Source: a bacterium (GTDB lineage: Bacteria > UBA8248). From it: DNA of 64,000 nucleotides. Below the pieces are notes generated by a model, which was not told the origin of the DNA, ran no database searches, and saw nothing but the letters and a program-made list of their open reading frames with translations. The translations under genes were made by a program, and so were the position numbers. The stretch covers positions 4,096,001-4,160,000 of the forward strand of contig OZ244799.1 of the NCBI GenBank assembly GCA_965219955.1, given 5' to 3'. Below are positions 41,552 through 45,432 of the stretch, one piece after another (position 1 is the first letter of the stretch; each line of letters opens with the position of its first letter).

Positions 41552-42229
41552 ATGAGTGCGGCGAGGCTGCGGCCGGAAGATTTCGAGGCGCTCTACGCGG
41601 GCTTCGCGAGTCCGCCGGCGCGGTTCGACTGCGGAAAGAAGTGCGCGCCCTTCAACGAGGGGGTTCCTTTCTGCTGCGATTCGGGCTGGGTGGTTCCCGT
41701 CGCCTGTCGCGAGGAATGGAAGTTTCTCGAATCGCGCACGCGGCTCTGGCACGAGTTCAGGCCGCGCACACTCCCCGAACTCGCGATGGTCGAGGAAGTC
41801 GACGCGGAGCAGAGCGTTTTCATCGAATGCCGCGGCGCCTTGCATTGCGAGCGGGAAAACCGCTCCGTCTCGTGCCGCACGTTTCCCTATGAACCCTATT
41901 TCGACGGCGACGAGAATCTCCTGGGACTGGTCTACAACCGGGTGCTGGAGGACAAATGCTACCTCGTGGATCGCCACCGCGTGGCGACGAAGAAGTATGT
42001 GGGTGAATTCCTGCGCTTTTTCGACCGGCTGTTCGAGCTGCTGCCCGCCGAGCGCGAACTCTACATCGCGCAAAGCAGGCGTTACCGCCGGACGATGAGC
42101 CGAAGAAAAAGGCCCCTCGTGGTCCTGACGCCGGACGGCCCCTACGAGGCCGCCTGCCGGGGCGGAAAGCTCCTCCGCCGGTGGAACAGGCCCGACCCTC
42201 CCGAGAGCGCGTACCGGCCCGGGGGGTGA
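41552..42229 (+). CDS. Cys-rich (YkgJ-like) putative metal/Fe-S protein
   Basis: FDCGKKC, FCCD, ECRGALHC, SCRTFP motifs. Confidence 0.6.
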   Translation: MSAARLRPEDFEALYAGFASPPARFDCGKKCAPFNEGVPFCCDSGWVVPVACREEWKFLESRTRLWHEFRPRTLPELAMVEEVDAEQSVFIECRGALHCERENRSVSCRTFPYEPYFDGDENLLGLVYNRVLEDKCYLVDRHRVATKKYVGEFLRFFDRLFELLPAERELYIAQSRRYRRTMSRRKRPLVVLTPDGPYEAACRGGKLLRRWNRPDPPESAYRPGG

Positions 42230-42234
42230 TCACC

Positions 42235-42473
42235 GTCATTCCGGCGAAGGCCGGAATCCATTTTCGCCTTTGCCTTTTCACCTCCTCGTTCGGACGTCTT
42301 TACGCCCGGGCGGGGAGGGTCGGAATCGAACACAAAAACGAAAGACGAATTCCTTGGATTCCGCATTCGAACGCCGCGCAACAACAAGGTCGTGGCCGCC
42401 CCGCCCGGTGAAAAGTCAAAATGGATTCCGGGCAATCCCTCCCTCCTCGGTCGGCATTGATTGCCGGAATGAC
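42235..42473. repeat. MITE-like family A element
   Basis: Terminal GTCATTCCGGC/GCCGGAATGAC; interior shared with the 25933 and 58455 copies. Confidence 0.85.
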
Positions 42474-42667
42474 GGCGGCGGGGCCGGTCTCGATAACGGC
42501 GGGAGGGTTTGCGGTTTTCGTAGGGCTCGGACATATATGTCCGACTGTGTGTTCTCCCGTTTTACCGTGTTTTCGTCCGAGCGTTTGGGGCGATGGGGTG
42601 GACGCCTCCTTCCGGCGGATTAGAATGTGGCGAGACGACGTCACACACCGCCCGGAAGGAGACGACC

Positions 42668-43693
42668 ATGGGAGGAGTCTACATCATCGGGGTCGACTTG
42701 GCGAAACACAGTTTTCAACTCCACGGCGCGTGGGCGGACGGGCGGGTCGCGTTCCGCAAGAAGCTGACGCGGGCGAAGGTGCTGGAGTTTCTGTCGTCGC
42801 AGCCTCGATGCGTGGTGGCGATGGAGGCGTGCGCGAGCGCGCACTACTGGGGGCGCGAGGTCGGCAAGCTCGGCCATGAGGTTCGGCTCATGCCGCCGGT
42901 CTACGTGAAGCCCTACGTGAAGCGCCACAAGAACGACGCGGCGGATGCGGAGGCGATATGCGAGGCGGCCACCCGGGCGACGATGCGCTTCGTGGCGGTG
43001 AAGAGCGAAGCGCAGCAGGGGTGTGGGATGGAGTACCGCACGCGGGATTTGCTGGTGCATCAGCGCACGCAGGCGCGCAACGCGCTGCGCAGCCACCTGG
43101 CGGAGTTCGGGGTCGTCGAGCGGCAAGGGCCCGTGGGCCTCACACGGCTGGCGGCGGCGGTTCGGGGAGCGGAATCGGGCCTGCCCGAGGAGGTCCGGGA
43201 GCTGGGCGAAGTTCTGCTCGCCCAGATTGTCGGCCTCGATGCGAAGGTCCGGGAGTTGACCGGACGGCTCCGGGCGAGCGCATACGCGGACGAGGAGGCG
43301 CGGCGTCTGATGAGCATCCCGGGTGTTGGTCCGATTACGGCGTCGGCGATCCGGGCGTTCGCGCCGCCGGTGGAGAACTTCCGTCGGGGCCGTGACTTCT
43401 CGGCCTGGCTGGGTCTGGTTCCCCGGCAGCACTCCACGGGGGGCAAGCCCCGTCTGGGGGGCATGTCGAAGATGGGCCAGCGCGACGTGAGGCGTCTGTT
43501 GATATCGGGCGCGATGTCGGAGATACGCTGGGCGGGGCGTCGCCGGAAGCCGCCGTGTCCGTGGCTGGCGCGGATGCTGGCGCGCAAGCCGAGGAAGGTG
43601 GTGGCGGTGGCGCTGGCGAACCGGATGGCGCGCATCGCGTGGGCGCTGATGCGGAACAAGGATGTCTACAGGGAGCCGGCGCCCCTCGCCTGA
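42668..43693 (+). CDS. IS110 family transposase/recombinase
   Basis: GVDLAK, MEAC, KNDAADA (DEDD) and WLGLVPRQHSTGG motifs; GAAGGAG RBS. Confidence 0.95.
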   Translation: MGGVYIIGVDLAKHSFQLHGAWADGRVAFRKKLTRAKVLEFLSSQPRCVVAMEACASAHYWGREVGKLGHEVRLMPPVYVKPYVKRHKNDAADAEAICEAATRATMRFVAVKSEAQQGCGMEYRTRDLLVHQRTQARNALRSHLAEFGVVERQGPVGLTRLAAAVRGAESGLPEEVRELGEVLLAQIVGLDAKVRELTGRLRASAYADEEARRLMSIPGVGPITASAIRAFAPPVENFRRGRDFSAWLGLVPRQHSTGGKPRLGGMSKMGQRDVRRLLISGAMSEIRWAGRRRKPPCPWLARMLARKPRKVVAVALANRMARIAWALMRNKDVYREPAPLA

Positions 43694-43749
43694 GCGGCGG
43701 GCGCACGGATAGAGCCGGGAGGAATGTGAGCAGGCCGGAGGAAGGGTAA

Positions 43750-43910
43750 GGGCAAACGGTCATCGAGACGGGACCGGGAAAACCAGATGCGTGTCCAGAG
43801 CCACCGAGCTCACCAGGTCGATTTGGACCCGGTCCACCTATCTCCATACGGGCCCGCGGCCAGAGTAAAGCGCCGCAACGAAGAGGCCGGATATACGACT
43901 GAGCCGAACC
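43750..43910 (+). ncRNA. Candidate bridge/seek RNA of the IS1111-type element
   Basis: Stem GGACCGGG/CCCGGTCC encloses TGCGTGTCC (complementary to the target flank); ATATACGA matches the donor junction; boundaries approximate. Confidence 0.7.
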
Positions 43911-44037
43911 GCTTTGCGCCGAACCCTCCCCAAAAACCGCTTGCATTCTCGTGGGCGTCCATATACGACTGAGCCGAACCGCTTTGCGCCGAACCCTCCC
44001 CAAAAACCGCTTGCATTCTCGTGGGCGTCCATATACG
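43891..44037 (+). repeat. Exact 70-bp tandem duplication at the IS right end
   Basis: 43891-43960 equals 43961-44030, plus a third ATATACG. Confidence 0.95.
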
Positions 44038-44223
44038 GACACGCAGGTCCGCCCCTACACATCGAACCCGATGGAGCAGGACTTTTTCAACAACCCCGCA
44101 TTGGTCGGCGTGCCCCCCGTAGGGACAGGCCTCCGTGCCTGTCCTGACGAAGGACAACCACGGAGGGTTGTCCCTGCAAAAAACGCAACATCTATTTTAT
44201 CGGTCGCGATTGCCGCCGCCGGC

Positions 44224-45432
44224 TCAGCCCGTCATCTCCTCGGCCATGTCGGCGATGGCGCGGCCTATCATCAGCGAGGCCGTCGCGCCCGGCGAGGGGG
44301 CGTTGCACACGTGGACGGCGCCCTCGGTCCGGATGATGGAAAAATCATCCAGCAGGCCGCCTTCGCGGTCCACCGCCTGCGCGCGGACGCCCGCGCCCGC
44401 GGGAGCGAGGTCCGATTCGCGGATCTCGGGCATGAGCTTTTGCAGCGCGCGCGTGAAGGCGGACTTGCTGACCGAGCGGACCATCTCACCGAGTCCCGTC
44501 TTCCAGTATTTGAGCGCCAGCCTCAGGAAGCCGGGATACGTCAGGGTTTCGAGCAGATCGTAGGGGTCGACCCGCGTTTTCGTATACCCCTCTCTCATGT
44601 AGGCCAAAACGGCGTTCGGCCCCGCCTCGACGCTCCCGTCCACGCGGCGGGTGAAGTGGACCCCCAGGAAAGGAAACGCCGGGTCGGGGACCGGGTAGAT
44701 CAGGCTCTTCACGAGCGAGCGGCTCCCGGGCGTGAGTTCGTAATACTCGCCCCGGAAGGGCACGATCTTCATCGGCGGCGCCCCGCCTGCGAGTTTGGCG
44801 ATCCTGTCGGCGTAAAGCCCCGCGCAGTTGACGATGAGCTTTCCCCCGAAATCCCCCGCCGTCGTTTCGACGCGCCTTTCTCTTCCCGAGACGGCGATGC
44901 CGGTGACTTCGGCGGACGTCCGGATGCTCTGCCCCGCCCCGGTGACGATGCGGGCGTAGGCGCGCACGACGGCGCCGTAGTCGATGATGCCCGTGGAGGG
45001 CACCCGCAGGGCCTTGACGCCCCGGGCGTGGGGTTCGAACTCGCGGAGTTCCTCCGGCCCCAGAACCGCGATGTTCTCGATGCCGTTCGCCTCGCCACGG
45101 CGGCGTAATTCCTCGAGCCGGGGGATTTCCGCCTCCTCCGTGGCGACGACCACCTTGCCGCAGATTTCGTGGGCTATCCCGTGTTCCCGTGCGAAGCGCA
45201 CCATGGCGGCCGCGCCCTCCACGCAGGTCCTGGCCTTGAGCGAGCCGGGGCGGTAGTAGAGTCCCGCATGGATCACGCCGCTGTTGTGGAGCGATTGGTG
45301 GCGGCCGACGCCGGTTTCTTTCTCGAGGACGAGGACGCGTTTTTCGGGTCGGCGGCGGGTGATCTCCATGGCGGTGGAAAGGCCGAGAATGCCGCCTCCG
45401 ATGACGATGACGTCCCACGTTGTCTGATTCAT
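44224..45432 (-). CDS. lhgO: L-2-hydroxyglutarate oxidase
   Basis: GGGILG, HQSLHNSGVIHAGLYY, PFRGEY, PFLGVH, GVRAQA, NAPSPGATAS motifs. Confidence 0.92.
   Translation of the reverse strand: MNQTTWDVIVIGGGILGLSTAMEITRRRPEKRVLVLEKETGVGRHQSLHNSGVIHAGLYYRPGSLKARTCVEGAAAMVRFAREHGIAHEICGKVVVATEEAEIPRLEELRRRGEANGIENIAVLGPEELREFEPHARGVKALRVPSTGIIDYGAVVRAYARIVTGAGQSIRTSAEVTGIAVSGRERRVETTAGDFGGKLIVNCAGLYADRIAKLAGGAPPMKIVPFRGEYYELTPGSRSLVKSLIYPVPDPAFPFLGVHFTRRVDGSVEAGPNAVLAYMREGYTKTRVDPYDLLETLTYPGFLRLALKYWKTGLGEMVRSVSKSAFTRALQKLMPEIRESDLAPAGAGVRAQAVDREGGLLDDFSIIRTEGAVHVCNAPSPGATASLMIGRAIADMAEEMTG

Follow-up and report, generated by a model that had tools for sequence, protein, structure and literature searches.

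A predicted bridge RNA gene in an IS1111-group insertion sequence, with guide variants matching variants of a palindromic host repeat

The window (the whole 64,000-nucleotide stretch of DNA that was analysed) contains a whole IS1111-group insertion sequence at positions 42593..44037 on the + strand, where all features described below also lie unless noted. Its ends were set by an alignment of eight genomic copies with their flanks: on the left, CG is followed by ATGGGGTGGACGCC, and on the right the element closes with ...GGGCGTCCATATACG. In the same alignment the left end reads CG and then ATGGGG, the right end reads ...CCATATACG up to the flank, and all eight copies run from CG-ATGGGG to CCATATA(CG) and the flanking DNA. 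The ends assumed in a first-pass annotation of this DNA, which took ATGGGG (42593-42598, preceded by GGGGCG) as the left terminus, were therefore the right ones. A CG core stands at both junctions of the window copy (42591-42592 and 44036-44037), and across the eight copies, all from one genome, one shared CG is found at both junctions, at an equal position in related sites. The left end (42593..42606) is composed of the 6-nt extension ATGGGG and a subterminal inverted repeat, TGGACGCC (42599-42606), the right end (44024..44037) of the partner repeat, GGCGTCCA (44024-44031), followed by TATACG. Each of these 8-bp inverted repeats, TGGACGCC and GGCGTCCA, lies 6 nt inside its end, and relatives are arranged alike. 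The window copy measures 1445 bp, against 1375 bp in seven sister copies. Upstream of its gene are 75 nt of non-coding DNA (42593-42667) and downstream 344 nt (43694-44037), 70 nt of which are a duplication; the downstream region has 274 nt in the sister copies.

The element interrupts a palindromic host repeat. The left target half (42583..42592, ...TTTGGGGCG) ends in the core CG and belongs to a longer host repeat, and the right target half (44038..44060, GACACGCAGGTCCGCCCCTACA) is the remainder of the palindrome. The surroundings of the insertion sequence are a cluster of host repeats. Two further short repeat families, with dozens of genomic copies, flank the element at 42400-42480 and 44117-44181.

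The single gene of the element (42668..43693) encodes a transposase of 341 aa with a DEDD/RuvC-like N-terminal domain and a C-terminal PF02371 domain. Pfam matches were obtained to PF01548 (DEDD_Tnp_IS110, E 9.3e-14) and PF02371 (Transposase_20, E 9e-23), covering residues 32-171 and 237-316 as numbered on a 366-aa reading. The NCBIfam model NF033542, 'IS110 family RNA-guided transposase', matched with 302.5 bits (cut-off 140) over profile positions 1-341 of 343; together with the two Pfam domains, this bears out the earlier suggestion of an IS110/IS1111 RNA-guided recombinase. Among proteins of solved structure, the ISCro4 and IS621 transposases alone were found as relatives, with E about 1e-9 (IS621, E 1.1e-9). 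IS1111 transposases are described as having 330-350 aa and a GL-P----S/T-G motif (PMC11187229); the protein has 341 aa and GLVPRQHSTG can be read in its translation. The element combines DEDD and PF02371 domains with subterminal inverted repeats and a long 3' non-coding region, all traits of the IS1111 group, the last two being features by which IS1111 elements are defined in the accounts of PMC11187229 and PMC11208160. An AGGAG lies 8 nt 5' of the gene, and a promoter scan picked out a promoter-like site in the left end (42599-42626). By eye, we also noted a conserved string, CTTGC, at about 21 nt from the right end, which could supply the -35 element of a junction promoter.

We consider it very probable that 42593-44037 is an IS1111-group insertion sequence and that the flagged stretch in its 3' non-coding region is its predicted bridge RNA ('long seekRNA') gene. 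Relatives were collected by a scan with one genome per species, which gave 562 stretches encoding relatives of the transposase; the best 80 of these (56-82% protein identity), from Alphaproteobacteria, Vicinamibacterales, Nitrospinota, Binatia and other metagenome-assembled genomes (MAGs) and isolates, were retained. The 3' ends of the relatives share a strongly conserved scaffold that is broken up by hypervariable blocks. A regular expression for the target loop recognised just 35 of 89 loci, and a covariance model was put in its place. This model, for which 51 diverse relatives were used, gave 107 matches in the 91 sources searched; in the window it matched 43756-43908 (138.4 bits, E 2e-34). 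From the cmsearch match, consensus folds and pair counts, the RNA gene is predicted to extend over 43756..43912.

RNAalifold predicted two stem-loops from the 51 diverse sequences. When the whole non-coding end of 34 elements was folded, a closing helix of 4 bp appeared in addition, for which 14 and 12 compensatory changes were counted; in the window this helix is placed, by eye and in a shifted position, between CGGT (43757-43760) and ACCG (43909-43912). The RNA is thus modelled as a three-helix fold made of the closing helix, stem-loop 1 and stem-loop 2. Stem-loop 1 (43771..43835), the predicted target-binding loop, was drawn from the consensus fold and pair counts. It has an outer stem (GGACCGGG, 43771-43778, with CCCGGTCC, 43828-43835), a 2-bp helix (CC, 43783-43784, with GG, 43825-43826) and an inner stem (GAGC, 43798-43801, with GCTC, 43808-43811); compensatory changes were counted at six of the eight outer-stem pairs and three of the four inner-stem pairs. 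The stem that the first-pass annotation had drawn around a putative guide is this first stem-loop of the conserved RNA, and the strings it quoted, the two stems among them, all proved to lie where it had placed them. Stem-loop 2 (43851..43888) pairs GGCC (43851-43854) with GGCC (43885-43888), an invariant and therefore uninformative helix, and GCGGC (43856-43860) with GCCGC (43872-43876), an inner helix with three compensatory pairs.

Across the alignment, 97.7% of the 1170 helix cells hold standard pairs, against 90.7% in shuffles, and two-sided changes occur at 13 of the 23 pairs, against 6.2 in shuffles (a number reached in none of 500 shuffles). When the partners are slid by 1-3 columns, pairing falls to 22-42%. 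Summed from the pair table, the helix cells include 60 G-U pairs against 27 non-standard combinations of any kind, which favours an RNA read from the + strand and not from its complement. Taken as a single sequence, 43694-43967 does not fold with unusual stability (z -1.16). That fold also brings 43721-43731 (GGAAUGUGAGC) together with 43938-43948 (GCUUGCAUUCU), with three G-U pairs, around the whole RNA; both strands of this helix are conserved in relatives, yet it is missing from the consensus fold. An Rfam scan of 42200-44400 at E up to 1 returned no family and one chance microRNA match outside the element, a result that leaves room for such RNAs under another Rfam model.

Contigs from public RNA libraries cover 43628-43967 in three runs of one metatranscriptome study, with pieces in a second study, and prove neither transcription nor the ends of an RNA. 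They represent a close relative with the ATA form of the guide (see below) and a single 70-bp unit, and they continue into GACATATATGTCCGAC..., the matching repeat variant. Five public RNA runs contain 7-12% of the sampled words.

Stem-loop 1 carries two putative target guides on the opposite strands of its internal loop. The 5' target guide, TGCGTGTCC (43788..43796), complements the right flank's top strand together with the core G (44037-44045): as had been claimed, it is the exact reverse complement of GGACACGCA at that position, so that the window copy shows a perfect 9-nt fit. In a variant found among the sister copies, ATA replaces GCG at 43789-43791. The guide is separated from the inner stem by 1 nt in the window and, by eye, mostly by 2-3 nt in relatives. 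The 3' target guide (43815..43822) consists of AGGT, the core CG (43819-43820) and AT; it has the sense of the left flank and would pair with the bottom strand, and its last two letters, AT, are those with which the left end starts. The longer strand on this side, ACCAGGTCG (43812-43820), does end in CG, and the partial match to the left flank that had been proposed for it amounts to two of six letters plus the core. The 3' guide of the window copy (AGGTCG) thus fits its own left flank (GGGGCG) poorly, and the left flanks of sister copies (GTAGGTCG) fit AGGTCG better.

To call ends in relatives we used a fixed rule, a left-end pattern and the downstream inverted repeat plus 6 nt. From the 64 matches for which both ends were called, we obtained 57 rows and 41 guide pairs, all distinct; the remaining 43 of the 107 RNA matches were excluded (the rule found no ends in 23, the flanks of 8 were too short and 12 were truncated). 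The 3' loop strand and the left flank are identical at 4.37 of the 6 nt before the core, against 1.84 after permutation, and the longest complementary run between the 5' loop strand and the right flank averages 5.61, against 3.34; neither value was reached in 2000 permutations of the 41 guide pairs, a procedure that ignores the relatedness of the elements. In relatives whose targets are unrelated and non-palindromic, the scaffold is preserved and just the loop letters are refitted to the elements' own flanks. The first-pass annotation had made its case depend on whether such loops covary with their targets; once the right ends of related elements were folded and aligned, they were found to do so.

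The strands on either side of stem-loop 2 appear to read the ends of the element itself. On the 5' side, CTCCAT (43842..43847) complements the left end, ATGGGG, one of the pairs being G-U. The pairing that had been pointed out is thus present, and its covariation is weak: of 17 combinations, 16-17 pair at positions 1-4, which show hardly any variation, 14 at position 5 and 12 at position 6, so that this match rests mostly on invariant letters and is only weakly informative. On the 3' side, the putative donor guide ATATACGA (43891..43898) is made of ATATA, the core CG (43896-43897) and A, which is the sense of the right end plus the first letter of the left end, as expected from the predicted circle junction. 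This strand tracks the right end: the 4 nt before the core equal the right end of the element in 39 of 41 guide families, against 7.0 when permuted (0 of 2000 as high). For example, ATATACG in the main family reads ATACACG in a 79% relative from the same genome (L009), the change being present in guide and right end alike. The donor guides thus do not occupy an internal loop of the second hairpin and are single strands either side of stem-loop 2.

The core dinucleotide links both guide sets. It is the same in the target and donor 3' guides of all 45 distinct RNAs (19 CG, 25 TG and 1 AG), in keeping with the CG core first proposed for the window copy, which carries CG in both guides and at both junctions. 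The core equals both junctions in 53 of 57 rows; since the left-end pattern required a G before the end, this count takes the second core letter of the left junction as given. Four guide families from Vicinamibacterales and Acidobacteria MAGs that stand outside these counts (L037, L041, L043, L044-L047) show, by eye, TG before ATGGGG at the left junction and CG in both the target and the donor 3' guide; their six letters before the core match 6/6, and their right ends were not found by the rule.

A search of the genome itself returned eight copies of the insertion sequence at 98-100% identity, and the 79% relative mentioned above. The target proposed at first sight, a host repeat family, was recovered as a palindromic repeat that occurs in this genome in two variants (14 and 6 sites). 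Variant A (GGGCG GACACGCAGGTCCGCCCCTAC) accounts for 14 sites, 3 of them occupied, and variant B (palindrome GTCGGACATATATGTCCGAC) for 6 sites, 4 of them occupied; unoccupied sister sites read ...GATTGGGCG and then GACACGCAGGTCCGCCCCTAC across the insertion point. An unoccupied variant-B site, the palindrome CTCGGACATATATGTCCGAC, is found at 42526..42545 (no strand assigned), about 50 bp to the left of the window copy.

Six of the copies (L002-L007) are identical over 1373-1375 bp save guide letters and few others. They differ in three adjacent letters of the 5' guide, which are either GCG or ATA: the GCG guide complements the flank GACACGCAGG and the ATA guide complements GACATATATG. Two 3'-guide letters also differ in L002, where one outer-stem letter turns a G-C pair into G-U, and one letter differs at the right junction of L004. 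One of the L002 changes, T to G, brings the 3' guide of this copy into agreement with the GGGCG left side common to all unoccupied variant-A sites. The 79% relative has a different target, and both of its loop strands are changed to suit. As read from these sequences, the guides are naturally retargeted, two 5'-guide variants fitting two repeat variants. The divergent copy L008 has the ATA form and no private differences past alignment position 1086, a pattern that indicates how ordinary recombination could carry a guide patch from one copy to another. Copying of a template from the flank, converting GCG to ATA at once, was considered and rejected as unnecessary, ordinary recombination being sufficient in the light of L008.

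The 5' guide and the right flank agree in six of the eight copies, with runs of 9-10 nt, against 4 nt in two copies where guide and target variant are swapped: L004 combines the GCG guide with a variant-B site, and L005 the ATA guide with a variant-A-like, non-palindromic site. These swaps suggest that the RNA acts in trans between copies, and we infer that L004 and L005 are best explained as insertions guided by the RNA of another copy. In published assays of related elements the RNA is supplied in trans (PMC11187229).

Three right junctions are one base short, those of L004, L008 and L005 (contig C1 of the genome, G000, at about 694055, 4205787 and 1959368, in that order). L004 and L008 read ATATA-G-GACATATAT and not ATATA-CG-GACATATAT, and the flank of L005 is without one G. 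These short junctions may be later deletions or assembly errors, because the RNA-library contigs of the close relative show the full CG at an L008-like flank.

Other readings of the right end have to be weighed against that of an RNA gene serving an active element. All of the complementarities described above are equally present in DNA, and the guides might therefore act as DNA, with single-stranded right-end DNA pairing to the target and the ends in an IS200/IS605-like manner and the hairpins being DNA structures. We regard this as very improbable: the 60 G-U cells of the helices would pair poorly in DNA and are C-A on the other strand, the protein falls in a family named as RNA-guided by NCBIfam (NF033542), and published relatives co-purify with RNA and need it (PMC11187229). 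Still less credible, in our view, is that the right end holds a captured fragment of the palindromic repeat, its likeness to the flank having no function. A palindromic target does make nearby self-similar strings likelier than in random DNA, and the 9-mer GGACACGCA occurs three times in the 64-kb window, against 0.62 expected, a number that 4 of 100 shuffles reach; two of the three occurrences are the guide and its flank. That count alone is insufficient, and it is because the relatives covary that chance is inadequate as an explanation: their loops fit their own unrelated flanks (41 guide pairs, 0 of 2000 permutations) and the core shifts jointly in both guide sets (45 of 45).

An RNA gene may also be genuine and the window copy nevertheless be a crippled or non-autonomous relic. 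In this sense could be read its 10 substitutions that are private or common only to L008, the 70-bp duplication that gives it two right ends, and a 3' guide with just 2/6 identities to the left flank. Against this, the gene has an unbroken reading frame of 341 aa and the matches to both domains cover nearly their full length, the RNA scores 138.4 bits, on par with its sisters, the RNA and the true right end are intact, and the duplication adds sequence and removes nothing. A relic thus seems unlikely.

The extra length of the window copy is due to a 70-bp tandem duplication (43891..44037) that TRF reports as 2.1 units, 100% identical. Its units (43891-43960 and 43961-44030) are bounded by two ATATACG strings, one in the donor guide and the other in the right end; ATATACGA, known from the first-pass annotation as a guide only, is thus also the start of the duplication. 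As a consequence of the duplication, the window copy has an inner right end (ending at 43967) and a true outer right end (ending at 44037). The duplication is confined to the window copy: one unit is present in the seven sister copies and in three RNA-library contigs. The two 7-bp repeats could have given rise to it through slippage or unequal exchange; alternatively, the recombinase could have treated guide-encoding DNA as an end. Among relatives, an array of 131-bp units, all identical and at least 10.2 in number, was seen in an alphaproteobacterial MAG (L063:2660-3993), where it continues past the end of the retrieved locus. Each unit combines donor-guide region, stem-loop 2 and right end, and the junction is at a CG just before the 5' donor guide. 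Another relative (L073) has a 10-bp right-end duplication. Tentatively, and with rather low confidence, we propose that donor-guide DNA mimics the element's ends and that the recombinase sometimes joins the true right end to such an internal site, which would explain the 70-bp duplication in the window, the 131-bp array and the L073 duplication. If true, this would mean, together with the swapped copies, that the RNAs act in trans in the cell and that right-end modules are a regular by-product of the guide design.

The IS621 bridge RNA, which is reportedly also the subject of Hiraizumi et al. 2024, is said to carry its donor guides as the two sides of an internal loop. Unlike in this layout, the donor guides here would be junction strands that flank a hairpin in a three-helix fold. 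Other points of comparison with IS621 can be taken from Durrant et al. 2024 (PMC11208160), where a bridge RNA is predicted in the right end of 93.0% of IS1111s. As described there for IS621, target and donor guides are separate, and both strands are read around a shared core dinucleotide; the recombinase is likewise of the DEDD type, with a sequence match at E 1.1e-9. Unlike IS621, the element has its RNA at the 3' end and not at the 5' end, its guides follow the opposite strand order and its inverted repeats are long.

A closer resemblance is found to the seekRNA elements of the IS1111 family (ISEc11, ISKpn4, ISPst6 and the REP-targeting ISPa11) described by Siddiquee et al. 2024 (PMC11187229). 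The transposase type, the subterminal inverted repeats and the long downstream non-coding region are alike, and so is the natural re-programming among relatives; the target is a REP-type repeat, as for ISPa11. According to that description, an IS1111 seekRNA has its top-strand match on the 5' side of its bottom-strand match, and its long form measures 145-170 nt (PMC11187229). The same strand order is seen here, with matches that overlap at the insertion point and a conserved unit of about 150-157 nt. The element is a different one from the seekRNA examples, its nearest relatives in the species collection having 56-82% protein identity. In its treatment of the long seekRNA form, that account leaves the role of this form open (PMC11187229); unlike what is set out there, the extra part of the RNA here carries putative guides that track the element's own ends. 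The present locus can also be compared with ISPpu9 and ISPpu10 of Pseudomonas putida, IS110-family elements in REP sequences (Pares-Guillen et al. 2025, PMC12288879). As described for these, multiple copies are found at a fixed dinucleotide in REP or BIME repeats, and extra end copies give alternative modules and tandem duplications beside the element (PMC12288879). The extra module of ISPpu9, ssr9, has left-like and right-like boxes and is described as forming circles of its own (PMC12288879); unlike ssr9, the 70-bp unit of the window copy has the right end only.

A working model may be drawn up from the published work on IS621, ISEc11 and ISPa11. The element would excise as a circle in which the right and left ends are joined at CG, and a transposase tetramer would hold one RNA that pairs with the donor, which is the circle junction, as well as with the target, which is the host repeat. 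The internal loop of stem-loop 1 would read the target, its 5' strand the top strand and its 3' strand the bottom strand, and the strands before and after stem-loop 2 would read the element's own ends, CTCCAT the left and ATATA-CG-A the right. Strand exchange at the shared CG would then result in insertion without duplication. The RNA probably arises by processing of a transcript that it shares with the transposase mRNA.

A mechanism of this kind is already known, and what is new here is the element itself and its guide polymorphism. The case adds little to the principle because bridge and seek RNAs have been known from IS110/IS1111 elements since 2024, with predictions covering most IS1111s. 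It is valuable as a clean natural case, with copies identical but for their guides, two guide and two target variants and two mismatched insertions; it may serve as a natural test of mismatch tolerance, of trans action between copies and of guide retargeting in nature. The family alignment (41 guide pairs, three cores and a three-helix layout in which the donor guides flank a hairpin) could also be used as a design template for recombinases of the IS1111 type.

Finally, a second RNA copy or a different element was observed within 1-1.4 kb in several relatives. Such doubled RNAs or elements were noted at L034:1295-1443 and 2590-2740, in L040 and L062 (two RNAs each), and at L048:3692-3840, L081:3691-3841 and L109:2797-2965. 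In L034, one element apparently lies inside the stem-loop 2 and donor-guide region of another.
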